DNA from: an uncultured delta proteobacterium
Lineage (GTDB): Bacteria; Desulfobacterota; Desulfobacteria; Desulfobacterales; B30-G6
Assembly: GCA_963823335.1 (NCBI GenBank)
Contig: CAWGLD010000005.1
Span: forward strand, 128,001 to 192,000
DNA length: 64,000 nucleotides
Direction: 5' to 3'
Shown here one piece after another: positions 53,572 through 64,000 of this stretch. A model generated the notes under the pieces. The model had not been told where the DNA came from, did not search any database, and saw only the letters and a program-made list of their open reading frames with translations. The first letter of the stretch is position 1, and each line of letters opens with the position of its first letter. Position numbers and translations under genes: made by a program.

Positions 53572-54390
53572 TCAATACAGGCCCTCTACTTCACGGCGGA
53601 AGAAAACAGCGATGACAATCACCGTAATGGTCGGGAATAAAATGATCAAAACCGCTGCAGCATTTACTGCCGGCGTGAAGGTAAAGCGCATGAGGCTGTA
53701 AAGGTACACGGGCAGTGTCAATTCGTGTCCGATCAGGAAGAAAGACAGCAAAAATTCCCCCATGGAGATCGTAAAACAAAAGAGCGCAGCGGCCAGGACG
53801 GAGGGAATTATCAACGGCAACGTGATGTCCAGAAAGGTTCGCAGCCGGGTTGCGCCAAGATCCATGGCAGCTTCTTCCATTTCGAGATCGAAGTTGAGCA
53901 ACCTGTCACGAATAACCATGACAGCAAAGGGCATAATAAAGGTCGTGTGACCTAAAATAGTGGGCCAGATTCCACCCGGGATACCCAGAAAGCGAAACCA
54001 GAGCAGGACCGAGATAGCCGAAACAACCCCGTAGGTGATAATTGCCAGGATGTTGAGAGTCTCGATCAATGATTTGCCTTTGAACTTGAATCTGACCAGG
54101 CCATAGGCCAGCCCGCCTCCGATGAGAGTCGAGAAAAAGGTTGCTACCAGCCCGATGAAGACCGAATTTTTAAGGGCTAGTATTAGTCTGGAATCATCAA
54201 AGGCTTTCTGGAACCAATGGAAGGTCAAGCCCTTCAGGGGCCAGGTCAGATATTCCGACGCGTTGAAAGCATAGAGCACCAGTACTGCCAACGGTAAAAA
54301 AATATAACAAAGGAACAGAATGAAATAAATCTGGAAAGCCTTGTCGCCCCAGTCCTTTACCAGCCAATCAGGCCAACGGGAGTCAGGCAT
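53572..54390 (-). CDS. Pot-type ABC permease (PotC-like)
   Basis: EEAAMDLGAT, TLPVYLYS, PAVNA. Confidence 0.9.
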   Translation of the reverse strand: MPDSRWPDWLVKDWGDKAFQIYFILFLCYIFLPLAVLVLYAFNASEYLTWPLKGLTFHWFQKAFDDSRLILALKNSVFIGLVATFFSTLIGGGLAYGLVRFKFKGKSLIETLNILAIITYGVVSAISVLLWFRFLGIPGGIWPTILGHTTFIMPFAVMVIRDRLLNFDLEMEEAAMDLGATRLRTFLDITLPLIIPSVLAAALFCFTISMGEFLLSFFLIGHELTLPVYLYSLMRFTFTPAVNAAAVLIILFPTITVIVIAVFFRREVEGLY

Positions 54391-55282
54391 ATTCGGCCTC
54401 CTTTCCCAGGCGGACAATTACGGCCGCCAGCATCAACAGGGCCAGAAAGACAACCACCGAAAGCGCACTGCCGGTGGTCCAGTTTGCGCCGCCCATGAAT
54501 GTTTCAAAGATCACCGAGGATATCATCAGCGTATTGGCGCCGCCTAACAACTGCGATGATAACACGTCCCCGAAGCTGGCCAGCAGTACCAGAACAACTC
54601 CGGACACGGTTCCGGAGCTGGTCAGCGGAATCGTTATCCTGATCAATGTTTGCAATTTATTGGCGCCAAGATCCTCGGAGGCCTCCAATAATTTATTGGG
54701 CACCTTGCCCAAACTGGCATAAAGCGGAAGGACCATATAAGGGGTATAGGTGTAGACCAGACCGAAGACAATGCCGGTTCCCGAATATAAAAACCGGATA
54801 GGAGTGTCGAAAAGGCCTAAGGACATCAGCGCCCAATTGAGAATCCCGCTTGAACCCAGAATAATCTTCCAGGCAAAGACGCGCAGAATCACACTGGTCC
54901 AAAATGGGATCAGGAGGGCCAGCAATAGCAAGCTGCCACGCCTGGTTATACGCGACAGATAATAGGCCACCGGATAGGAAATCAGCAGAGAGATGATCGT
55001 TGCCGTGGCGGCATAGCCGGCGGTTCGCATAAAGGCATTGCGATAAATCGGCTCGACGAGGACACGCAGATAGTTGTCAAACGTATAGTGGGGATGGGGA
55101 TCGAAGAAGGGCATGCTGGACAACAGACTGTACCGCAGGGCCACAAACATCGGAATCAGAAAGAAGAGGATCAACAGGATGGCAGCCGGACATATGGTGA
55201 GAATGGGAACGGTCAGTTCATCGAGTCGATCCCGCCACGGCAATGCCCGGTATGTGTTTGTTTGGACTGCGGATTCCTGCAT
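54383..55282 (-). CDS. Pot-type ABC permease (PotB-like)
   Basis: IPFWTSVILRVFAW, PYMVLPLY, LEASEDLGA. Confidence 0.9.
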   Translation of the reverse strand: MQESAVQTNTYRALPWRDRLDELTVPILTICPAAILLILFFLIPMFVALRYSLLSSMPFFDPHPHYTFDNYLRVLVEPIYRNAFMRTAGYAATATIISLLISYPVAYYLSRITRRGSLLLLALLIPFWTSVILRVFAWKIILGSSGILNWALMSLGLFDTPIRFLYSGTGIVFGLVYTYTPYMVLPLYASLGKVPNKLLEASEDLGANKLQTLIRITIPLTSSGTVSGVVLVLLASFGDVLSSQLLGGANTLMISSVIFETFMGGANWTTGSALSVVVFLALLMLAAVIVRLGKEAEYA

Positions 55283-55302
55283 TTGTCGACTCCCTGATTC
55301 CC

Positions 55303-55352
55303 GGAAGCAAGATGCGGTTTCTGATTATCTGAAACACACATCTTGCTTTCCA
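55303..55352 (-). other. Intercistronic stem-loop after the SBP gene
   Basis: GGAAGCAAGATG..GTTTC...GAAAC...CATCTTGCTTTCC. Confidence 0.65.
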
Positions 55353-55365
55353 GTATTGTAGCTCT

Positions 55366-56442
55366 TTATTTACCACGCACGTCCTGGTAGGCCCTCACCA
55401 TTTTTTCGGATGTTTCCGGTTTCAGGGTGGGGTACGGTACCAACCGTTTTGTTTCCTCATCGGAGTAGGTCATAATATCGGCCATTTCCTTTGGCAAGGC
55501 ACTGGCGGCTTCTGCATTGACTACCATATAGCCCATCTTCTTGATCATCTGGGAGGCAACTTTCGGAGATAGCATGTGATTGATCCATTTGTTGGCCGCA
55601 TCCTTGTGGGGGGCATCGGACATGATGCAGAATTGGTCGATCCAGGCCGCGGCCCCTTCTTTAGGAAGCACGAATTTCACCGGTTGCCCGTCGAGCTGCA
55701 TCTTGTGGACCATGCCGTCATCTGCCGACGTGAGCCATATTTCACCCGAAGCCAGGAGATTTTTCATTTCTTCAAGGCTTTCGATGCGCTTCAGCAACAG
55801 GGGATTTTGCTCGGCCAGCTTCTTCTTGATGGGGATCAGTTTGGCGTCGGTGTCGACATCGAGCTGGGTGATATCCATACCGAGATATTTGCCAACGGCA
55901 AAACAGGCATCCACGGGGTTCCGGGAAAAAGCGATACGGCCCTTATAACGCTCATCCCAGAGGGCACCCCAGGAAGTAGGCGCTTCCTTGACCAGGTCGG
56001 AACGATAGGCAATTCCCATGATCCCAAAAGTGTAAGGCACACTGTATTGCTTGCCATCGACCGTATTGTAATCCGCCTTTTTGAAACCTTCCGACAAGCC
56101 TTCATAGTTGGGAATCTTGCTCTTTTCAATGGGCGACAAGAGGCCGGCCTTGGCAAATCGTTGGATCATATGGTTACTGGGCTGAATGATATCGAGGCCC
56201 TTGTGCCCGGCCTGAATCTTGGACCACAGTTCCTCGTTGCCGTGATAGAATGTGCAATTTACCTTGATGCCATACTCTTCTTCGAAGGATTGGGTCGCAA
56301 AATCAGGGCAGTAGATACCCCAGGTCCAGATGTTGAGCTCTGTATCTTCAGCGGCCAACACTCCCTGCAATGGGAATAGTAGACCTAAGAGGAACAAAAA
56401 TACCGCCAACCTGACTGCGATTGAACATTTTGGGTGTTTCAT
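55366..56442 (-). CDS. PotD/PotF-family substrate-binding protein
   Basis: Signal peptide, LNIWTWGIY, DIIQPS, VPYTFG, PKEGAAAWID; RBS AAGGAG before ATG 56442. Confidence 0.9.
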   Translation of the reverse strand: MKHPKCSIAVRLAVFLFLLGLLFPLQGVLAAEDTELNIWTWGIYCPDFATQSFEEEYGIKVNCTFYHGNEELWSKIQAGHKGLDIIQPSNHMIQRFAKAGLLSPIEKSKIPNYEGLSEGFKKADYNTVDGKQYSVPYTFGIMGIAYRSDLVKEAPTSWGALWDERYKGRIAFSRNPVDACFAVGKYLGMDITQLDVDTDAKLIPIKKKLAEQNPLLLKRIESLEEMKNLLASGEIWLTSADDGMVHKMQLDGQPVKFVLPKEGAAAWIDQFCIMSDAPHKDAANKWINHMLSPKVASQMIKKMGYMVVNAEAASALPKEMADIMTYSDEETKRLVPYPTLKPETSEKMVRAYQDVRGK

Positions 56443-56612
56443 GATAGTCTCCTTCTCTTTGTAATGCTGCATAGGTCCTTGCCGGATTTTGATTTTTTCA
56501 GTCAGTCAAATTTTCTCTGTCCACCCCCTTTCAATTCGGATGTAAGGGTATTACCCACCGTCACTGTTTTTTCACAGATGGAAACCTTCGCCTGCAATAA
56601 GCGAAAGCCGGC

Positions 56613-57722
56613 TTACGTGTTTTCTGAACCCGTTATCTTTACGGCCAGCAGCGCTGCGTCTTTGGCAAACCAACCAATCCGTGTCTTGTCTCCAATCCGG
56701 AAATCAGCGGTAGATTTTGCATCCAAATCCGCTTTAAACTGGACCTTGTTGGGCAACTCGACGATGCAGCGTCGCATGGGTCCGGAATAGATCAAGTTAA
56801 TGATATGGGCCGGGTGTTGGGTGTCGCACCTGTCGGCACTTTCACCGAGCACGATCCTTTCCGGGCGGATACAGAGTGTGACCATCTCACCCACGTCAAA
56901 GCGGTCCGCTTTCTTGGCATGGAACACCAAACCGTCGGCTTCGATTTTGGAAGCGCTTTCTTCGTATCTATAAACCTTGCCGTCCAAAAAATTCGTGTCA
57001 CCGATGAAATCGGCGATAAACCGGGTTCGCGGGCGTTCATAGATCTCCTCGGCGGTGCCGATCTGTTCGATTTTGCCCTGGTTCATGATGGCGATCCGAT
57101 CGCACATATTGAGGGCTTCTTGTTGATCGTGGGTCACGTAGACAAACGTGGTGCCCAAGCGGCGCTGGATGTTTTTGATTTCGATCTGCATTTCCCGGCG
57201 TAGTTTAAGGTCAAGGGAACCCAGAGGTTCGTCAAATAAAACCACGCTGGGCTCAAGAATCAGGGCCCGGGCAAGGGCGACCCGTTGCTGTTGGCCACCA
57301 CTGAGTTGTTTCGGATACCGCTCCCCAAAGCCCTCTAAATGAACGACCTCCAGGGCATCAGCTACCCTGGCTCTGATCTCTTTGGCAGCTACTTTTCGGA
57401 TTTTTAAACCATAGGCCAAATTGGAGAAGACTGACATGTGAGGAAACAGTGCCAGATGCTGGAAAACCATCGTGGTGTTGCGACGATAAGCGGGCCGACG
57501 CCCCATCAGCTCATTCTGGAGATAGACCTCCCCTATATCAGGAATGATAAATCCCCCGATAATACGCATGGTAGTGGTTTTACCGGAACCGCTGGGGCCT
57601 AAAATACCAAAAAATTCACCCTTTTGAATGGCAAGAGAAACATCATGAAGCACCTGGTTGGGTCCGAAATAGTGCGAGATGTTGTGCAGCACACAATCGT
57701 ATGGGGTCTCATTTATCGCCAC
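56613..57722 (-). CDS. Pot-type ABC ATP-binding protein (PotA-like)
   Basis: [28 protein letters not shown]; likely GTG start at 57722 after AGGAAGG. Confidence 0.9.
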
Positions 57723-57784
57723 ATGCTTTTCCTTCCTCACATAACTGATCCAAAAAAAAGTTTTCAGCAAGAGGTGTATGTTTA

Positions 57785-57960
57785 TTGACGACAGTGTGTG
57801 TGTATATCGGAAACACAGTAACGGAATAAACACTAAAATGTCAAGCAAAATAATTCCTCATTCTTGCCCTTTCCGGAAGCCAGGAAAATGATATTTTTTT
57901 GCTTGACATTTTTGCAAAAATCTCTGTATGAATGTTTCCTATCCGAATACAAAGCGTCAA
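57785..57960. promoter_or_regulatory. Mirror-image divergent sigma70-type promoters, each with a TGTTTCC operator-like motif
   Basis: Plus strand: GCTTGACATTTT..TATGAA-TGTTTCCTATCCGAATACA. Minus strand: GCTTGACATTTT..TACTG-TGTTTCCGATATACACA. Both have an 18-nt spacer. Confidence 0.6.
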
Positions 57961-58021
57961 CGATAAGCATACGATATTTTCTAACCCGACCTTGTACCCT
58001 AACGCGCCATGTGGAGGTTAT

Positions 58022-59887
58022 ATGAATACTGAAAAAATATTTGGAAGTCATGGCCGGCTGCTCAGAATTGACCTCACCCACCAGGTTGTTCAAACAGAAC
58101 AATTGCCCTTAAATGATTTGCGCCTTTATTTGGGCGGAAGAGGGCTGGGTGCTGCAATCATGCTCAGAGAACTTCCGGCCGGAATCGACCCCCTTGGCGA
58201 AGAGAACCTCCTCATTTTTTCTACGGGTCCTCTGGTAGACTCACCTGTTCCTGGGAGCAACCGGTATGTTTTGCACACGAAATCCCCCCAAACGGGTCTC
58301 TATTCCTTTTCCGTGTCAGGCGGCCGTTTTGGTGACATGCTGAAAAAAACGGGTAACGACGTGATCATCATCAAGGGAAAAGCCTCCAGGCCGGTTTATC
58401 TCTTTGTGAAAGATGATGGCCGGGTTGAATTCAAAGACGCGTCACACCTGTGGGGTAAGGATACCGAAAAGACCCAGGAAAGCATCTTGTCGGAAACCGA
58501 CCCGGATGCCAGGGTTACCTGTATCGGTCCCGCCGGGGAGAATCTTGTGCCCTATGCTTGTCTTATCAATGAGCGACGGGCACTGGGGCGTGGTGGTGCA
58601 GGTGCTGTCATGGGATCTAAAAATCTGAAAGCCGTGGCCGTGTTGGGCCGGACCAGTGTTACTTTGGCCGATTCCGAAACCATGAAAACGGCCATAAAAA
58701 ACGGCTATCAGGAGCTTAAACAGAATCCTATGACGGCGAAAATTCTGAAGACCTACGGCAGTTCGAATATGCTCCGGGGCCTGATGAACCACGGTGCGCT
58801 GCCCGGAAATAACTGGGCAGAGGCTGCTCTTGACGAAGCCGAGTCGATTACCGCCGAACAGATGCGGGAGCATTTCCATGTCAAGGATCTGGCCTGTTCG
58901 GCCGGATGCCCGGTCAAGTGCTCGAAGATGTTCGCGGTAAAAGAAGGGGACTATCGCGGTGCGCAAAGCGAGGGTCCTGATTACGAAACCGTTTATGCCT
59001 TTGGGTCCTGTTGCGGTGTTTACGACCTGGCGCCCATCATTAGGGCGGATGAACTTTGCGATCTGTTAGGTCTCGATACAATCAGTACCGGCGTAAGTAT
59101 TGCCTTTGCAATGGAATGCCTGGAAAAAGGCATCATCGATGCCGGTGATGCCGATGCGGGCGATCTGGCATTTGGAAATGCCAAGGCCATGCTCAAGCTT
59201 GTTGAAGATGTGGCTTACAAAAGAGGCTTTGGCGTGGTGGTGGCAGAAGGAACCCGTGCTATGGCAGGCCGTTTTGGACGTGATTCACACAAATTTGCCA
59301 TGCATGCCAAGGGCATGGAGCTGGGGGGCTACGATCCGAGGGGTATGAAAGGGATGGGGCTCGTTTATGCCTGCGGCCCGAGGGGCGGGTGCCACCATGC
59401 CGGCGGCTATACAGCCATTGCTGAAATGATGAACCCCCAGATAGACCGATTTTCAGAAAAGGGTAAGGCCCCACTTGTGGCCGGAACCCGAAACAGACGT
59501 GCTTCTCTTTGCGACTCAGGTCTCATCTGTGCTTTCGTGGCCATCGGGCTCAGCGATGAAACCGTAATCGGTATGCTAAACAGCGCCACCGGGTTCAATT
59601 ACCAGCCAAGTGATCTGCACACCATTGGAGACAGAATCAGCCAGATCGAAAGGGCTTTTAACTGCCGGGAAGGGCTGACACGTGGTGATGACGTGCTCCC
59701 TGAACGGTTGTTGTCAGAAAGTGTCACCCGCGGACCCAGTCAGGGAGGGAAAATGGAGGATTTTGAGGCCATGAAAGACGAGTTCTACACGCTGTGTGGC
59801 TGGGACCTCACTTCAGGTGCTCCTCTGGAAGAAAGACTAGAAGCACTGGATATCGGCTGGGTGAAAGACATTCTCAAAACAAAATAA
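58022..59887 (+). CDS. aor: Aldehyde:ferredoxin oxidoreductase (W/Mo-pterin AOR family)
   Basis: GGRGLG, KSPQTG, IGPAGE, GRGGAGAVMGSKNLKA, CSAGCPVKC, EGPDYET, GLDTIS, YDPRG, RGGCH. Confidence 0.92.
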   Translation: MNTEKIFGSHGRLLRIDLTHQVVQTEQLPLNDLRLYLGGRGLGAAIMLRELPAGIDPLGEENLLIFSTGPLVDSPVPGSNRYVLHTKSPQTGLYSFSVSGGRFGDMLKKTGNDVIIIKGKASRPVYLFVKDDGRVEFKDASHLWGKDTEKTQESILSETDPDARVTCIGPAGENLVPYACLINERRALGRGGAGAVMGSKNLKAVAVLGRTSVTLADSETMKTAIKNGYQELKQNPMTAKILKTYGSSNMLRGLMNHGALPGNNWAEAALDEAESITAEQMREHFHVKDLACSAGCPVKCSKMFAVKEGDYRGAQSEGPDYETVYAFGSCCGVYDLAPIIRADELCDLLGLDTISTGVSIAFAMECLEKGIIDAGDADAGDLAFGNAKAMLKLVEDVAYKRGFGVVVAEGTRAMAGRFGRDSHKFAMHAKGMELGGYDPRGMKGMGLVYACGPRGGCHHAGGYTAIAEMMNPQIDRFSEKGKAPLVAGTRNRRASLCDSGLICAFVAIGLSDETVIGMLNSATGFNYQPSDLHTIGDRISQIERAFNCREGLTRGDDVLPERLLSESVTRGPSQGGKMEDFEAMKDEFYTLCGWDLTSGAPLEERLEALDIGWVKDILKTK

Positions 59888-59972
59888 TTCTGTGGGCATC
59901 CTAAAAGTGTGAGCGATTGCTTGTGTGCTTTTTTCGACGGCATAAACCAACCTGCGATGAAAGGAGGTAGAT

Positions 59973-60185
59973 GTGACTACGTTCGTCAAGAAAAATCGAC
60001 AATGGTGGATTACGTGGTTAATTGTCTGGATCGTCATGTATCTGCTGGCAATTCTGATATATCCGGACGCCCCCTCGATTTGGTTTGGATGGCTGCCAAG
60101 TTCGGTGGTAACCACTTTCGGGTTGATGGTCGCTTCCCTGATCTTTGGATATCTATTTGCCAAACAGCGGTTCAGCCAGAAATAG
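59973..60185 (+). CDS. Small two-TM membrane protein, probable accessory partner of the Na+/solute symporter
   Basis: Two hydrophobic helices with FGWLP between them; GTG start after AAGGAGG; position upstream of an SSS gene. Confidence 0.7.
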   Translation: MTTFVKKNRQWWITWLIVWIVMYLLAILIYPDAPSIWFGWLPSSVVTTFGLMVASLIFGYLFAKQRFSQK

Positions 60186-60198
60186 TCCTGGTGTCAGT

Positions 60199-60274
60199 GT
60201 AAACCGCAACAGCGAGCGCATTCCCCATAGGTTCTGCCGTTCGGCAGTGCTTCGCATGCTGCGAGGTTCTTCAA
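60199..60274. repeat. REP/MITE-like element, family A (intermediate form)
   Basis: AAACCGCAACAGCGAGCGCATTCCCCATAGGTTCTGCCGTTCGGCAGTGCTTCGCATGCTGCGAGGTTCTTCAA is nearly identical to the first part of 18749-18873. Confidence 0.88.
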
Positions 60275-60327
60275 AACCGTATCTGATCTGGAAATATAAT
60301 TTTCCAGACGCTGGAAAGGAGGCCAAA

Positions 60328-61815
60328 TTGATTCTGAAAGTCATCCCTATCTTAATAATCGTTGCTTACATGGTGGTCTGTCTTGTGGTCGGTTATACTG
60401 TTTTCCGTTCTAAAGCCAAAATGAAATCCGGAGATTATTTTATCGGAGATCGAACCAGCGGTTCTTTTGTGGGACCCATGTCCTACATATCCACGGTATT
60501 CAGCGCTCTTGTCTTCATGGGTGCCGTAGGTATTTATTTTGCCCTCGGTATTGGTTTCAATATCTTTCTTATCAGTGAAATGTTTCTCCTGGCTGTGTTT
60601 GTCCCCACGGTGGGATATCTCTTCTGGCGGCTGGCCCACCAACACCAATACGTAACACCAGCGGACCTGATGACCCATCGCTACGGAAACGGACGGACTG
60701 TCCGGATCATCGTGGGCTTGAACACCGTCGGTTTTATGATATTCTTCATGGCCACCCAAATCGTCGGCATTTCTTACATCATGGAAACCATTACCGGCGG
60801 GCTGATGAGCTATGGTGCCTCGGTTATCCTTATTTCGGTCGTTCTGGCCTTTTATATCGTTTTGGGTGGATTCCGTGCCATAGAGTACACCGACACCTTC
60901 CAGGTGATTATTCTCATGACCTGTGTCGTGGGTACCTTTTTATTTTTAAGCACGAGTATTGACTGGACGGCTGCTTTCGTCCAGGCGCAACAGATCCGTC
61001 CGGCACTTTTCAAGGCTCCGGGCCCGATACCCATCTACACGACCAAGCTTTATATGTCTCAACTCTTTGTCATCGGTCTCGGGTTTGCACTGATGCCGCA
61101 ACTCTGGGTACGGATATACGCCGTCAAGAACGAAAAAGGCCTGCAGAATATCGTGACCTATTTTATCGGGAGCACGATCATCCTGTTCATTATTTCGTTT
61201 TTCCTGGCTGTGGCTGCTGCGCCAATTATTGGCAAACTGTTCGCCGAAGGAGAAAAACTTGTCCCGGCCAAAATTGTCATGAAGCTCATGTTCAGCAACA
61301 TGCCTTCCTGGCTGGCAGCTACGCTGCTTACCGGAGCTATCGCGGCGACCATGTCAACCGTGGACTCGGCGGTGCTGGCCCTCAGTTCCATCCTGACCAT
61401 CGATCTTTACCGCAAGCCGTTCAATCCCGAAATGAACCCGGCAAAAGAGGCCACTGTCGGGCGGATTGTCAGTGTATTGCTGATAGCCATCATGGCAGTT
61501 CTGGCCTTTTATCCACCGCAGTTGCTATTCAATTCGCTCATAGACATGGCCTATCCCGGATTGGTAACCCTTGCACCGGCTGCCATCTTGGGTATGTTCT
61601 GGAAAAAAGCCGGAACCGCTGCCGCGATCTCCAGTATTGTGTCGGGCTCTGTCCTGGCCGTGTATCTGATTTTTCATAAAAACCCAATGGGGCTCTACTC
61701 AGGTTTCTGGACCCTGCTGCTCAGTTTGGCGGTCTTCGGGGCAGTGACGTTTCTTATGCCATCAAAAGACGCAAGCTTTTTCAGGGATGTCGAGCGTGTC
61801 AGTGTTCATGAGTAA
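60328..61815 (+). CDS. Sodium:solute symporter (SSS family)
   Basis: DYFIGDR, GGFRAIEYTDTFQ, AATMSTVDS, many TM helices; TTG start after AAGGAGG. Confidence 0.9.
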   Translation: MILKVIPILIIVAYMVVCLVVGYTVFRSKAKMKSGDYFIGDRTSGSFVGPMSYISTVFSALVFMGAVGIYFALGIGFNIFLISEMFLLAVFVPTVGYLFWRLAHQHQYVTPADLMTHRYGNGRTVRIIVGLNTVGFMIFFMATQIVGISYIMETITGGLMSYGASVILISVVLAFYIVLGGFRAIEYTDTFQVIILMTCVVGTFLFLSTSIDWTAAFVQAQQIRPALFKAPGPIPIYTTKLYMSQLFVIGLGFALMPQLWVRIYAVKNEKGLQNIVTYFIGSTIILFIISFFLAVAAAPIIGKLFAEGEKLVPAKIVMKLMFSNMPSWLAATLLTGAIAATMSTVDSAVLALSSILTIDLYRKPFNPEMNPAKEATVGRIVSVLLIAIMAVLAFYPPQLLFNSLIDMAYPGLVTLAPAAILGMFWKKAGTAAAISSIVSGSVLAVYLIFHKNPMGLYSGFWTLLLSLAVFGAVTFLMPSKDASFFRDVERVSVHE

Positions 61816-61856
61816 GATGACCTGTTTCACCACACATGGGTCTGGAGAGAAGCATT

Positions 61857-62468
61857 ATGATGGTTGAAGAGTATGTTAGTAAAATCGCCCAGCGGATAAA
61901 AAACCGCCGGATCGAACTGGGTCTTTCTATTCGGGAAGCAGCGAGGTTAACTGACACGTCTCCCTCGACGATCCAGAAAATCGAATCGAACGAGATGGTC
62001 CCATCCATAGCGATTCTAATGAAGATTGCCCGTGGTCTCAATCAAAAGGTCACCTCTTTTTTTGAGAACGCGTCCGAACCCCGGAAAGTAGTGTTGGTGC
62101 GCCATGATGAGCGAAGGTCGACGACAATCCCCGCCTCCGGTCTCAAGGTTGAGGACTTGGGCTCATCGATAGAAGACGCTCGGCTGGAAGCATCGATCCT
62201 GACCATAGAAAAAGGGGGCAGCAGTGGGAAGGATCCCCTCATCCACGAGGGAGAGGAAATCAAGTTCTGTATGAAAGGCAAAATCGGTTACACAATCAGT
62301 GATGAAGAGTATGTGCTCGAAGCTGGAGACTGTATCCATTTTAAATCAGGAAACCCTCACTACTGGAAGAACGAAGATGCCGGAACCACGCGGGTTTTCT
62401 CTGTTGTGTTCAACGGTCCCTATTCCCAGCCGGCAAGAACAAAAAATGGGCGGGTAAAAAAAAGATAG
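61857..62468 (+). CDS. XRE-family HTH plus cupin transcriptional regulator (PuuR/SutR-like)
   Basis: RIKNRRIELGLS..SPSTIQKIES..PSI; HEGEE; GDCIHFKSGNPH. Confidence 0.9.
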   Translation: MMVEEYVSKIAQRIKNRRIELGLSIREAARLTDTSPSTIQKIESNEMVPSIAILMKIARGLNQKVTSFFENASEPRKVVLVRHDERRSTTIPASGLKVEDLGSSIEDARLEASILTIEKGGSSGKDPLIHEGEEIKFCMKGKIGYTISDEEYVLEAGDCIHFKSGNPHYWKNEDAGTTRVFSVVFNGPYSQPARTKNGRVKKR

Positions 62469-62554
62469 TCACAACCGGAAAACACTGCAGGACAATTAAA
62501 AAATCTGAACAAATTCATTGGTATGTGAAACAAAGCCGAAAAGGAGGAAAACCC

Positions 62555-63718
62555 ATGAGAGAACATGCCCTTTTTAATATGAGCTCCGGACCTGTCCAGG
62601 GAAGTGCCCGGACACTCCGGGCGCTATCCCAGCAAATTCTTTACCATCACGATCCTGAGTTTGCTGAGATATTTGATGCCTGCACCGAAAAACTGCAACG
62701 GTTTTTCAAGACATCAGGAGATGTCATTATCATGCAGGGTGAGGCACTCCTGGGCTTGGAAGCTGCGGCGTTCTGTACGATCGAACCCGGTGACAAATGT
62801 CTCAATTTAGTGTCCGGGATATACGGTCATCTATATGCCTGGTACATAGAGGCCTTCGGCGGCCAGATAGTTGAAGTGAGGACCGATTACAACAAGGCTA
62901 TCGATCCGGCCGAGGTGGAGAAGGCTTTTGCTGAGAACCCGGACATCAAGATCATGGCGGTTGTACACAGTGAGACACCTTCGGGAACTGTCAACCCCAT
63001 CGAGGACCTCTGCCCCATCGCTAAGAAATACGGCGCAATAACTATCGTCGATGCAGTTTCTTCCATTGGTGGGACAGAAGTGAATGTAGACGACTGGGGG
63101 ATCGACATCTGTTGTATCGGCCCGCAGAAGTGCCTGGCGTCGTCCCCGGGACTTGCACCAGTGGCTGTGAGTGAAGATGCCTGGGAAAAGATGCGCACTA
63201 AATCCAAGCCAGTGAGGTACTCCTACATGAGCATGCTCGATTTTAAAGAGCAATGGCTGTGTGAGAAAGAAAAGCGCAGTTTTCCGTATACCATGTTTAC
63301 CAATGAAGTCGTGGCCCTTGACGAAACCCTGGATCAGGTGTTTGAGGAAGGTCTGGAAAATATGATCGCTCGACACAAAACGGCGGCCAGAATGGCGCGT
63401 GCCGGGGTTAAGGGGATGGGACTTTCACTCTGGGCAGACACGGAAGACATCTGCGGGCCCTGCGCCACGGCGGTCAGAGCGCCGGACGGTGTCGACGAAG
63501 TCAAATTGCGGCGGCATCTTTATGATAAATATCGGATAACCATTTCCGGTGGATTCCGCGAACTTAAAGGAAAACTTTTCCGACTGGGCCATATGGGGCC
63601 GACGGCCAACCCTGCCTATGTCGCCATGCAGTTGGCAATGGTGGAAAAATCACTCCACGATATGGGCTACCCGGTTAAACTCGGCAGCGGTGTTGGGGCG
63701 GCTCTGGAAGCGATTTAA
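62555..63718 (+). CDS. Class V aminotransferase, pyridoxamine-pyruvate transaminase-like
   Basis: SGPV, YHHDP, QGEALLGLEAAA, ETPSGTVNP, DAVSS, GPQKCL, TAVRAPDGVDE, RLGHMGPTA. Glu replaces the usual Ser/Thr of the phosphate-binding loop. Confidence 0.8.
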   Translation: MREHALFNMSSGPVQGSARTLRALSQQILYHHDPEFAEIFDACTEKLQRFFKTSGDVIIMQGEALLGLEAAAFCTIEPGDKCLNLVSGIYGHLYAWYIEAFGGQIVEVRTDYNKAIDPAEVEKAFAENPDIKIMAVVHSETPSGTVNPIEDLCPIAKKYGAITIVDAVSSIGGTEVNVDDWGIDICCIGPQKCLASSPGLAPVAVSEDAWEKMRTKSKPVRYSYMSMLDFKEQWLCEKEKRSFPYTMFTNEVVALDETLDQVFEEGLENMIARHKTAARMARAGVKGMGLSLWADTEDICGPCATAVRAPDGVDEVKLRRHLYDKYRITISGGFRELKGKLFRLGHMGPTANPAYVAMQLAMVEKSLHDMGYPVKLGSGVGAALEAI

Positions 63719-63746
63719 TTTAAACAGGATGCAAGGGAGGCAAAAA

Positions 63747-64000
63747 ATGCTGAATTTTGCAAACGAGAAATGCGTTAACTGTCGACTCTGTGAGGAGGTC
63801 TGCTCTTTCAGACTTACCAATGCGGTTTATCCCGGTGTTGCGGCTATTCGCATCGGTCGGGAGGAAGGCAGGTGGGGGACACCCTATGCCATGGTTTGTA
63901 ATCTGTGTGAGGGTTTGGAAGAACAGAAATGCATAACGGCATGTCCGGAAGATGCGCTCAACCTTGGTAACGGGGTGATCGTTTGGGATGATGAAAAATG
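63747..64000 (+). CDS. 4Fe-4S dicluster (ferredoxin-like) protein; runs off the window edge
   Basis: Manual translation MLNFANEKCVNCRLCEEVCS...VCNLCEGLEEQKCITACPEDAL...; RBS GGGAGG. Confidence 0.85.
   Translation, partial: MLNFANEKCVNCRLCEEVCSFRLTNAVYPGVAAIRIGREEGRWGTPYAMVCNLCEGLEEQKCITACPEDALNLGNGVIVWDDEK

Follow-up and report, generated by a model that had tools for sequence, protein, structure and literature searches.

Near the end of the window, by which we mean the whole 64,000-nt stretch of DNA that was analyzed, an uncultured delta proteobacterium carries a gene for a class V aminotransferase with a glutamate in its phosphate-binding loop. The locus raises the question of whether this enzyme, like the pyridoxamine--pyruvate transaminase (PPAT) of M. 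loti, would take unphosphorylated vitamin B6 as a substrate instead of holding PLP as a cofactor, and of what the genes around it would then do with the product. The gene, its ribosome-binding site and the codons that align with functional positions of PPAT are the following:

62543..62547, + strand: GGAGG ribosome-binding site, 7 nt ahead of the ATG at 62555 (read in the sequence)
62555..63718, + strand: PPAT-like class V aminotransferase gene, 387 aa (P0001; ORF and translation, Pfam, NCBIfam, PDB)
62732..62770, + strand: altered phosphate loop, with Glu63 encoded by GAG 62741-62743 (sequence reading; aligned with the PPAT loop)
62822..62824, + strand: Tyr90 codon, counterpart of PPAT Tyr95 (30 of the 31 rows of the Glu clade have Y or F)
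63050..63052, + strand: Asp166 codon, aligned with PPAT Asp171, the partner of pyridine N1 (invariant in alignment A1)
63128..63130, + strand: Lys192 codon, aligned with PPAT Lys197, the Schiff-base lysine (29 of the 31 rows of the Glu clade have K)
63581..63583, + strand: Arg343 codon, aligned with PPAT Arg345, the carboxylate-binding arginine of the fold

The product carries a Pfam PF00266 domain (E 4.5e-26) and, judged by that domain together with Lys192 and Asp166, is a member of the class V superfamily by descent. An earlier note on this DNA, made from the letters alone, had placed a glutamate codon in the phosphate loop and had claimed that the Schiff-base lysine is retained. Direct reading bore out both statements: codons 62732-62770 (ATG CAG GGT GAG GCA CTC CTG GGC TTG GAA GCT GCG GCG) translate to MQGEALLGLEAAA, which makes the glutamate residue 63 of 387, and GGC CCG CAG AAG (63119-63130) encodes GPQK, of which the last codon is that of Lys192.

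A search against solved structures returned M. loti PPAT (2z9u) as the best relative (E 6.3e-92, 311.6 bits, residues 6-386), the next match being PucG at E 2.3e-50. Identity to 2z9u was about 40% when counted on the alignment and 39% by Foldseek. Among NCBIfam models, NF046070 ('pyridoxamine--pyruvate transaminase') led with 396.4 bits, 182 bits ahead of the next model, BhcA (214), while missing its equivalog cut-off of 600 bits. Superposition of a predicted structure on PpaT, a check that the earlier note had called for, gave the same picture for the overall fold: the AlphaFold model (pLDDT 96.8) found its best fold match in 2z9u_A (TM 0.96, rmsd 1.3 A, 385 columns). Column for column, Glu63, Tyr90, Thr141, Asp166, Lys192 and Arg343 align with PPAT Glu68, Tyr95, Thr146, Asp171, Lys197 and Arg345, and the two enzymes share the same loop, HGEPVLGLEAAA in PPAT (EC 2.6.1.30; 2z9u, 2z9v, 2z9w and 2z9x) and QGEALLGLEAAA in the query. 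PPAT Arg336 is replaced; it aligns with Phe334, with Arg335 adjoining, and the column holds R in 4 of 31 Glu-clade rows.

Passages of a review (PMC9309667) state that PPAT operates without PLP, that K197 forms a Schiff base with pyridoxal and that D171 contacts pyridine N1. By sequence, the transaminase described here is a divergent member of this known kind of enzyme, and at its level of identity the substrate could differ from that of PPAT. Glu68 of PPAT reportedly keeps phosphate out, and Arg336 is said to be a second carboxylate-binding arginine; the position of Tyr95 we take to be the ring-stacking one. To our knowledge, M. loti PPAT is the single sequenced enzyme for which PLP-independent transamination, with free pyridoxamine as substrate, is known biochemically, and our literature search found no other assayed member of the Glu clade.

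Reading the residues by their PPAT counterparts suggests a specific chemistry. Unphosphorylated pyridoxamine would donate the amino group, a 2-oxo acid (probably pyruvate) would accept it, and pyridoxal would leave as a product rather than being held as a cofactor. Lys192 would form a Schiff base with pyridoxal and perform the 1,3-proton shift; Asp166 would hold the ring nitrogen, Tyr90 would stack on the ring, and Arg343 would bind the oxo or amino acid by its carboxylate. Glu63 and the non-polar residues Ala64, Leu65, Pro142 and Phe243 may jointly fill or remove the 5'-phosphate pocket of ordinary class V enzymes. The PpaT-like, PLP-independent mechanism put forward in the earlier note thus draws its support from homology and gene context: PPAT is the closest relative by a wide margin, the glutamate aligns with that of PPAT, and neighboring genes point to vitamin B6.

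Of the 118 closest full-length homologs, 117 have glutamate at position 63 and the other has Asp. We extended the comparison to 135 rows, made up of the query and 134 full-length representatives of 50%-identity clusters, in which position 63 was Glu in 31 rows and S (67), T (19), P (11), A (4), G (2) or C (1) in the other 104. The Glu rows lie together on one side of one branch (31 of 31 inside, 0 of 104 outside), with a single change along the tree; support for this branch was 98 by FastTree SH-like values and 85 by IQ-TREE SH-aLRT with loop columns 61-66 omitted. Because nearly all of the closest homologs carry the residue and its bearers form a single clade, Glu63 is no chance substitution. 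No other column combines conservation of at least 80% in the PPAT-like clade with a share of 15% or less among the rows outside.

Outside the clade the loop has the form that the earlier note had given as usual for class V enzymes, G-S/T-G, with S or T in 86 of the 104 rows and G at the next position, 64, in 93, whereas position 64 is A in 22 of 31 rows inside (query Ala64). Three further positions differ in the same manner. At position 65, 98 of the 104 rows outside have T, S, R or H, and 27 of the 31 inside have I, M, L or V (query Leu65); at 142 the counts are 92 with S outside and 23 with P inside (query Pro142), and at 243 they are 67 with T or Y outside and 20 with F inside (query Phe243). 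As read from the alignment, the surroundings of the phosphate site turn non-polar together with the glutamate in the PPAT-like clade. Arginine fills the Arg343 column in 27 of the 31 rows of the Glu clade and in all 104 others. Set beside the PLP-dependent class V group of AGT, SPT and PucG (3isl, 6pk1, 1h0c), the query has the same fold (TM 0.90-0.94), shares the Asp, Lys and Arg, and is 25-31% identical, but it differs in the loop (G-E-A-L against G-S/T-G-T/S/R), at 142-143 (P-S against S-T) and at 243 (F against T/Y).

Homologs among the matches listed were 387 aa long and covered 100% of the query; 31 of 120 close homologs among these matches bore the JGI name 'pyridoxamine--pyruvate transaminase', and organisms labelled Anaerolineae were present among the close homologs. 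Alignment A1 comprised 52 rows and the closer alignment A2, used for the metagenome scan, 32 rows. Ordinary class V paralogs at 31-38% identity, which made up most matches of the single-protein scan of genome contigs, served as the control set.

What the enzyme might do in its host is suggested by the genes around it:

53572..57848, - strand: PotABCD-like ABC importer (ATPase, binding protein, two permeases; NCBIfam)
57932..59887, + strand: first aldehyde:ferredoxin oxidoreductase, AOR1, 651 aa (Pfam AFOR_N 2.7e-73, AFOR_C 4.2e-120)
60145..61815, + strand: sodium:solute symporter (best NCBIfam match PanF-like, below cut-off)
61836..62468, + strand: XRE-type HTH and cupin regulator, PuuR-like (Pfam HTH_3 and Cupin_2; NCBIfam PuuR 69.9 bits, below cut-off)
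63747..64000, + strand: 4Fe-4S polyferredoxin gene, 132 aa, 28 nt past the transaminase stop and continuing beyond the window end (L004:4748-5146)
outside the window, L004:5171-6983: tungsten-type aldehyde:ferredoxin oxidoreductase (AOR) gene, next after the ferredoxin

The AOR gene after the ferredoxin has a 1-nt frameshift in this assembly. Seven genes downstream of the transaminase lies a HAD-family gene whose best PDB match was FHMPC dehydrogenase from the B6 pathway of M. loti (4om8, 8.2e-77; next match 9.9e-63) and whose best NCBIfam model was NF042925 (328.5 bits; next model 268.7). All four parts of a downstream ABC importer matched NCBIfam 'putative B6 ABC transporter' models best, at 562.8, 335, 282.3 and 331.4 bits. 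Members of the cluster also include two tungsten-type AORs, a UbiD decarboxylase, a NicX-like protein, a cupin and a selenium-type Mo hydroxylase, as well as the selenium maturation genes YqeB and YqeC and a PreA-like Fe-S flavoprotein (reductase). A phmmer search of the NicX-like protein against PDB gave no match; its nearest fold was NicX, an O2-dependent dioxygenase, and because the model was poor (pLDDT 60.9, from 7 sequences) we treat this match as a lead only.

The symporter ORF is listed from 60145, its likely start being TTG 60329 behind a GGAGG. An RNA depth spike at 60144-60347, considered as a possible riboswitch, was rejected as a dispersed genomic repeat. Rfam gave no match in 59700-62700, a region that includes the symporter 5' region, and a promoter and terminator scan found sites no more numerous than in shuffled sequence. 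Contigs from four estuary RNA libraries spanned the transaminase gene at 95-99% identity and bridged into the ferredoxin gene, contaminating DNA being possible in such contigs, whose depth and gaps we do not read as level or absence.

Neighborhoods were counted at 64 Glu-type loci, all flanked by 3 kb of DNA or more, and at 64 ordinary class V loci as controls. At least one partner gene stood beside the transaminase at 32 of the Glu-type loci, compared with 1 of the ordinary loci; the partners at Glu-type loci were FHMPC-dehydrogenase-like genes (14), B6-type binding proteins (14), AORs (11), Mo hydroxylases (10) and NicX-like genes (8). The order transaminase, ferredoxin, AOR was kept in 11 related loci, and in five of them the whole island was syntenic, with transaminases 74-97% identical. 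In an archaeal locus (L011, 43% identity), the Glu-type gene occurs with a NicX-like gene, a cupin, a Mo hydroxylase and an ECF transporter; in a Syntrophomonas locus (L010), Asp replaces Glu and an ECF vitamin-type transporter adjoins. More distant Glu-type loci (L128 and L159) hold an SDR weakly matching pyridoxal 4-dehydrogenase and a class II aldolase-type decarboxylase. A Pot-like importer directly adjoins the transaminase gene in two congeners (the L007 and L009 layouts; tblastn PotD and PotA matches). In congeners G004 and G007, whose genomes are 95-96% complete, the gene is 93-94% identical and a Pot-like importer is its sole island companion; neither a NicX-like gene nor a close FHMPC dehydrogenase ortholog was found genome-wide in these two.

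Considering the evidence as a whole, we favor, with fair though far from full confidence, the view that the product is an aminotransferase of the PPAT type, PLP-independent, and forms the entry step of a B6 utilization island. From the gene context we infer that imported pyridoxamine would be converted to pyridoxal by the transaminase, and that the ferredoxin and the tungsten-type AOR encoded next would carry pyridoxal to 4-pyridoxate. Oxidation at the 5' position may fall to the FHMPC-dehydrogenase homolog and a second AOR, and decarboxylation to the UbiD/prFMN enzyme; ring hydroxylation by the selenium-dependent Mo hydroxylase would then be followed by reduction (PreA-like reductase) and ring opening by the NicX-like/cupin pair. 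The neighboring genes, in short, probably import vitamin B6 and degrade it without oxygen. The more far-reaching proposal, that an undescribed pathway of B6 degradation without oxygen starts with this transaminase and proceeds by AOR, FHMPC-dehydrogenase, UbiD, Mo hydroxylase and NicX-like steps, in hosts unable to make B6, we advance tentatively and would hesitate to call likely. Against a catabolic role stand the importer-only loci of G004 and G007, the failure to find PdxJ and PdxS in 15 genomes of the family, the O2 dependence of the dioxygenase nearest in fold to the poor NicX-like model, and the frameshift in the AOR gene.

Two known systems put the proposed route in perspective. The first is B6 degradation pathway I of M. 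loti and Pseudomonas MA-1. The PPAT-like protein, the FHMPC-dehydrogenase-like protein and the four transporter parts all find their best match in the NCBIfam B6 set (NF046070 PPAT, NF042925 FHMPC_DH, NF047927-NF047930 'putative B6 ABC transporter' and NF047923 pyridoxal 4-dehydrogenase), although every match of this cluster to the B6 models is below equivalog cut-off. PPAT and the query gene each lie near an FHMPC dehydrogenase homolog. The host of PPAT is an aerobic rhizobium, whereas the query host appears to be an anaerobic relative of sulfate reducers; the M. loti pathway uses NAD- and O2-dependent enzymes, whereas the neighbors here encode a tungsten-type AOR, UbiD and a selenium-type Mo hydroxylase. 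Ferredoxin-linked AORs, a UbiD-type decarboxylase, the Mo hydroxylase and the PreA-like flavoprotein seem to stand in for the O2- and NAD-dependent steps. The second is the anaerobic nicotinate fermentation of Eubacterium barkeri, which employs a Se/Mo nicotinate dehydrogenase, 6-hydroxynicotinate reductase and enamidase. Going by the proposed roles, the enzyme logic of the island's lower half would be alike (Se/Mo hydroxylation, Fe-S flavoprotein reduction, hydrolysis), but the substrate there is nicotinate and here would be B6-derived 5-hydroxy-6-methylnicotinate.

The same chemistry might instead serve salvage, a B6-auxotrophic anaerobe turning imported pyridoxamine into pyridoxal without oxygen for phosphorylation to PLP. 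None of 15 genomes from the family yielded PdxJ, compared with 15 of 26 genomes of other families in the order, and none of the 15 yielded PdxS, compared with 4 of 16; the family as a whole seems to lack PLP synthesis, which favors salvage. (PF01243 was dropped as a marker of PdxH, being too broad to inform.) That G004 and G007 keep importer and transaminase only, and that the L010 and L011 genes adjoin ECF transporters of vitamin type, is also in keeping with it. We nevertheless judge salvage unlikely, though it is still a serious competitor. A PdxK/PdxY-type kinase was not found in this genome (TIGR00687, no match; PF08543, 23.8 bits, below cut-off), and the ferredoxin and AOR encoded next, here and in the 11 related loci, would oxidize pyridoxal to 4-pyridoxate, for which no reuse is known. 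The same cluster holds homologs of two dedicated B6 breakdown enzymes, and the transaminase gene occurs in just 5 of 10 genomes of the genus, though PdxJ and PdxS are missing from all ten.

It is less probable still that a PLP-independent transaminase acts here on another B6-like substrate, such as an oxidized vitamer with a 5'-carboxyl or 5'-formyl group, or with oxaloacetate or 2-oxoglutarate as acceptor (EC 2.6.1.31-like). The replacement of PPAT Arg336, at a position that varies across the clade, would allow for this, as would the modest identity to PPAT and a model score below the equivalog level; yet all ring-binding residues are retained, and the gene order of transaminase, ferredoxin and AOR suits an aldehyde product that is oxidized next. 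Least probable of the four readings weighed, and quite improbable by our estimate, is that the enzyme belongs with the ordinary PLP-dependent aminotransferases of class V (alanine-glyoxylate or serine-pyruvate type), tolerates the glutamate and keeps PLP as cofactor: the class V fold with all general catalytic residues, the retention of Thr246 (counterpart of the phosphate-binding Thr of the neighboring subunit, and a point against the PPAT-type reading) and the NCBI name of the homologs, 'alanine--glyoxylate aminotransferase family protein', would fit it, but the Glu clade is one branch holding the nearest relatives of the only characterized PLP-independent member, four more phosphate-site positions change jointly, a second class V paralog in the same genome has a canonical SGTGS loop, and partner genes stand beside 32 of 64 Glu-type loci compared with 1 of 64 ordinary ones.

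We return, then, to a probable PPAT-type transaminase at the head of a proposed B6 utilization island, in which the enzyme is of a known kind and the newer point is the probable island for oxygen-independent B6 breakdown. The PPAT signature marks a large, coherent clade that takes in anaerobic Desulfobacterales-like bacteria, organisms labelled Anaerolineae and an archaeon, and because one residue and four co-varying positions split this clade cleanly from ordinary class V enzymes, they could be used as an annotation rule. If the island does break down B6 under anoxic conditions, it would constitute a new vitamin catabolic pathway, would supply new substrates for tungsten AORs, UbiD and Se/Mo hydroxylases, and would be a sink for B6 in anoxic sediments. 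Since its hosts seem to depend on external B6, the island may also have a bearing on vitamin cross-feeding in anoxic sediment communities.

The Glu in the phosphate-binding loop, from which the earlier note proposed that this transaminase works independently of PLP, is present, and so is the Schiff-base Lys that the note saw retained. Window positions 62732-62770 (ATG CAG GGT GAG GCA CTC CTG GGC TTG GAA GCT GCG GCG) translate as MQGEALLGLEAAA, with GAG (Glu) at 62741-62743, and in the translation read AAG at 63128-63130 closes GPQK. The transaminase gene occupies the ORF at 62525-63718, whose start is likely the ATG at 62555, seven bases past a GGAGG, for a product of 387 aa (P0001), where the two residues are numbered Glu63 and Lys192; close homologues are likewise 387 aa, at 100% query coverage. 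P0001 is a class V aminotransferase (PF00266, E 4.5e-26, Pfam). Of the NCBIfam models, NF046070 ('pyridoxamine--pyruvate transaminase') scores highest, its 396.4 bits lying under the curated cut-off of 600, and BhcA is runner-up at 214 bits. Against all solved structures, M. loti pyridoxamine-pyruvate aminotransferase (PPAT, PDB 2z9u) came first (E 6.3e-92, residues 6-386) and PucG second (2.3e-50). Identity to PPAT is about 40% (152 of 381 aligned columns, counted from the alignment; 39% by Foldseek), and P0001 is a divergent member of an enzyme kind already known. The second class V gene of this genome is 33% identical and has an ordinary SGTGS loop. Among the matches listed, 31 of 120 close homologues carry the JGI label 'pyridoxamine--pyruvate transaminase'; NCBI labels P0001 homologues 'alanine--glyoxylate aminotransferase family protein'.

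The loop (...MQGEALLGLEAAA) aligns onto that of PPAT (...LHGEPVLGLEAAA). By sequence alignment, E63, Y90, T141, D166, K192 and R343 correspond to PPAT Glu68, Tyr95, Thr146, Asp171, Lys197 and Arg345 (2z9u chain positions are the published numbering minus one), and PPAT Arg336 is replaced by F334, with R335 adjacent. Glu68 of PPAT reportedly blocks the phosphate. The PPAT comparison also held for the fold: a P0001 model from a 52-row clade alignment (mean pLDDT 96.8, pTM 0.94) had 2z9u_A as its top PDB match (TM 0.96, rmsd 1.3 A, 385 columns), with PucG and enzymes of the AGT type next (TM 0.89-0.94). According to a review, pyridoxamine aminotransferases function without PLP, and in PPAT K197 forms a Schiff base with pyridoxal while D171 hydrogen-bonds to N1 (PMC9309667). 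By analogy with PPAT, the pyridoxamine ring would stack on Tyr90 with N1 held by Asp166, and the bound pyridoxamine would react with an oxo acid held by Arg343; Lys192 would shuttle the proton and finish joined to the newly formed pyridoxal as a Schiff base; this pyridoxal would then be displaced and passed on. The loss of Arg336 makes the identity of the acceptor uncertain: it may be pyruvate or another oxo acid. Glu63, with A64, L65, P142 and F243, would leave neither room nor partners for a 5'-phosphate, and we propose that PLP and PMP would thereby be excluded and the vitamer turned over as a substrate.

Among the best 118 full-length homologues (50-93% identity), position 63 is Glu in 117 and Asp in one. 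Searching 1.84 billion cluster representatives, we kept 134 of the best 150 matches (340-520 aa), making 135 rows with the query; in these best matches position 63 is Glu in 31 rows and S, T, P, A, G or C in 104. The Glu rows form one side of a single branch in a FastTree phylogeny (SH-like 98), implying one change, and one change still suffices in a short IQ-TREE search with loop columns 61-66 removed (SH-aLRT 85). Position 63 is the sole column that is conserved to 80% or more within the clade while being shared by no more than 15% outside it; four others shift with it, yet fall under this threshold.

Positions shifting with position 63
Position 64: outside, G in 93 of 104; clade, A in 22 of 31; P0001, A
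Position 65: outside, T/S/R/H in 98 of 104; clade, I/M/L/V in 27 of 31; P0001, L
Position 142: outside, S in 92 of 104; clade, P in 23 of 31; P0001, P
Position 243: outside, T or Y in 67 of 104; clade, F in 20 of 31; P0001, F

We take positions 63-65 to match the human AGT phosphate contacts Ser81-Gly82-His83, and 243/246 to match Tyr260*/Thr263*, so that polar contacts would give way to one acidic residue and several hydrophobic ones; P0001 retains Thr246. Three transaminases of 34-37% identity (loci L012, L041 and L051, hosted by one Fusobacteriaceae MAG and two Methanimicrococcus genomes) have the same G-E-G loop and unrelated neighbours; the Glu signature therefore extends past loci with B6 gene clusters.

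The window is C5:128001-192000 of an 11-contig genome, 93.9% complete, and we followed the neighbourhood to 26 kb beyond the window end. Genes downstream of the transaminase lie on its strand with short gaps. L004 denotes this genome's own locus.

Genes around the transaminase
53572-57848, minus strand, upstream: PotABCD-like ABC importer
57932-59887, upstream: aldehyde:ferredoxin oxidoreductase (AOR)
Upstream: sodium:solute symporter
Upstream: XRE-cupin regulator
Begins 63747, downstream, transaminase strand: 4Fe-4S polyferredoxin
After the polyferredoxin: second AOR
Downstream of the second AOR: PreA/dihydroorotate-dehydrogenase-like Fe-S flavoprotein
Downstream: UbiD-family decarboxylase, top PDB matches 6h6x/6h6v (structures of a furandicarboxylate decarboxylase)
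Downstream: 3-hydroxyacyl-CoA-dehydrogenase-family protein (FHMPC-DH-like), top PDB match 4om8 (8.2e-77; next 9.9e-63)
L004:10722-11723, outside the window: M29-like (NicX-like) protein, 333 aa
L004:11740-12102, outside the window, after the M29-like gene: cupin, 120 aa
Downstream: xanthine-dehydrogenase-family Mo hydroxylase, three subunits
Downstream: ABC importer (ATPase, two permeases, binding protein), all with NCBIfam 'putative B6 ABC transporter' models as top match
Downstream, past the B6-type importer: M20 amidohydrolase
L165:4300-6648, about 19-21 kb past the window end, just after the island: YqeB, YqeC and MocA-type cytidylyltransferase

The structure 4om8 is FHMPC 5-dehydrogenase, from the B6 pathway of M. 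loti, and FHMPC_DH is also the first NCBIfam model for the FHMPC-DH-like protein, at 328.5 bits (cut-off 500; next 268.7). The ATPase, two permeases and binding protein of the downstream importer score 562.8, 335, 282.3 and 331.4 against cut-offs of 670, 400, 465 and 400; every B6-specific model match scores under its curated cut-off. YqeB, YqeC and MocA are maturation genes for selenium-dependent molybdenum hydroxylases, and their place beside the island suggests that it encodes a selenium-type Mo hydroxylase.

The M29-like protein matched none of the PDB sequences; its low-confidence model (pLDDT 60.9) is nearest to NicX (7cn3, E 1.6e-12, TM 0.62), the pyridine-ring enzyme 2,5-dihydroxypyridine dioxygenase, and H288, H308 and D310 are invariant in a 7-row alignment. 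Paired with the cupin, it accompanies Glu-type transaminase genes in bacteria and on a Bathyarchaeia contig (L011, L096, L159). Both proteins could require oxygen. In this assembly the second AOR gene, the one following the polyferredoxin, has an additional A (AAAA at L004:6285-6295, or about 65284-65294 when window numbering is continued past the window end) that breaks its frame into 387 aa and 223 aa. This base is missing at the aligned site in L005, L086, L093 and L008, and AAA is likewise found in L085, a contig of metagenomic origin whose transaminase is 100% identical; the extra base is probably an assembly error or strain variant.

Just 5' of the symporter gene, a 70-aa ORF (window 59973-60185) with its own GGAGG and two predicted hydrophobic stretches may encode a small subunit of the symporter. 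The 5' region of the symporter gene also holds a repeat, about 73 nt long and dispersed through the genome (window 60202-60274), with at least 40 copies of 91-100% identity (243 first-look candidates), no Rfam match and a fold that does not improve on shuffled controls (z -1.16). In the RNA-library contigs, whose flanks differ, this repeat makes the depth spike 170-fold. Parts of the stretch occur in 20 public runs, six of them estuary RNA libraries. Contigs from four of the latter cover the transaminase gene at 95-99% match, and each of these four runs has a contig that crosses from the transaminase into the ferredoxin gene (in X12, record 8 runs from 62863 to 63985). Contigs are no proof of a single transcript, and DNA carry-over is possible.

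Across genomes, we compared 80 loci from species genomes (protein query) and 80 from metagenomes (32-row alignment query), which sorted by loop into 90 Glu-type (one with Asp) and 70 ordinary class V. The entire island recurs in L005, L008, L086, L089 and L093 (transaminase 74-97% identical), and the transaminase-ferredoxin-AOR order is seen down to 62% identity (L091, L094, L096). At L134 (51% identity) AOR and ferredoxin are convergent; the gene there is preceded by a ThiL/HypE-like ATP-binding protein and a phosphonate-type ABC importer. At more distant Glu-type loci (L128, L132, L146, L150) the transaminase gene is accompanied by one that is FHMPC-DH-like and one for a B6-type binding protein, L128 having an extra SDR whose top model, pyridoxal 4-dehydrogenase, barely exceeds generic SDRs. 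The Glu-type locus L159 combines FHMPC-DH-like, class II aldolase-type decarboxylase, NicX-like, cupin and Mo-hydroxylase-subunit genes; the archaeal L011 (Bathyarchaeia by title, 43% identity) has a NicX-like gene, cupin, Mo hydroxylase and ECF transporter. ECF-type vitamin transporters adjoin distant Glu- or Asp-type genes at L010:59-4662 and L011:11291-14507 (S component PF07155, T component and ATPases) and at L096:14326-16871 (two ATPases). Counting FHMPC-DH-like, NicX-like, cupin, Mo subunit, AOR and B6 binding protein or its ATPase as partners, and considering only loci flanked by 3 kb or more of sequence, we found at least one partner at 32 of 64 Glu-type loci versus 1 of 64 ordinary loci (L037, Mo hydroxylase); several Glu-type loci are near-copies of one another, so the 32 are not independent events.

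Among 60 relatives, the gene is present (93-97% identical) in four of nine other genomes of the genus; none of five genomes representing the family's other genera has it, whereas a single further genome of the order does (73% identical). Genomes G002 and G006 carry the island; in G004 and G007 (95-96% complete) the gene adjoins the Pot-like importer only, no NicX-like gene was found, and the HAD-family members are just generic paralogues (39-43%). PdxJ was found in 0 of 15 family genomes versus 15 of 26 genomes from the order's other families, and PdxS in 0 of 15 versus 4 of 16; those other families have PdxJ or PdxS. In this genome no model matched a PdxK/PdxY-type kinase (PF08543 only sub-threshold), and a PdxH-like frame scored 165 against a cut-off of 180.

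Our literature search, conducted largely outside subscription journals, found no anaerobic B6 degradation pathway, and nothing relevant on pyridoxamine with aldehyde ferredoxin oxidoreductase or on an anaerobic 4-pyridoxic acid degradation gene cluster. All steps of the B6 breakdown pathway proposed here are putative, assigned from family membership. A role for the transaminase in B6 salvage is kept alive by the apparent auxotrophy of the lineage, in which PdxJ and PdxS were not found, but the ferredoxin and AOR genes directly after it, the lack of a recognisable kinase in this genome and two dedicated catabolic homologues within the cluster speak against it. We rank breakdown above salvage, and both may apply in what looks to be a lineage of vitamin B6 auxotrophs without a recognisable pyridoxal kinase.
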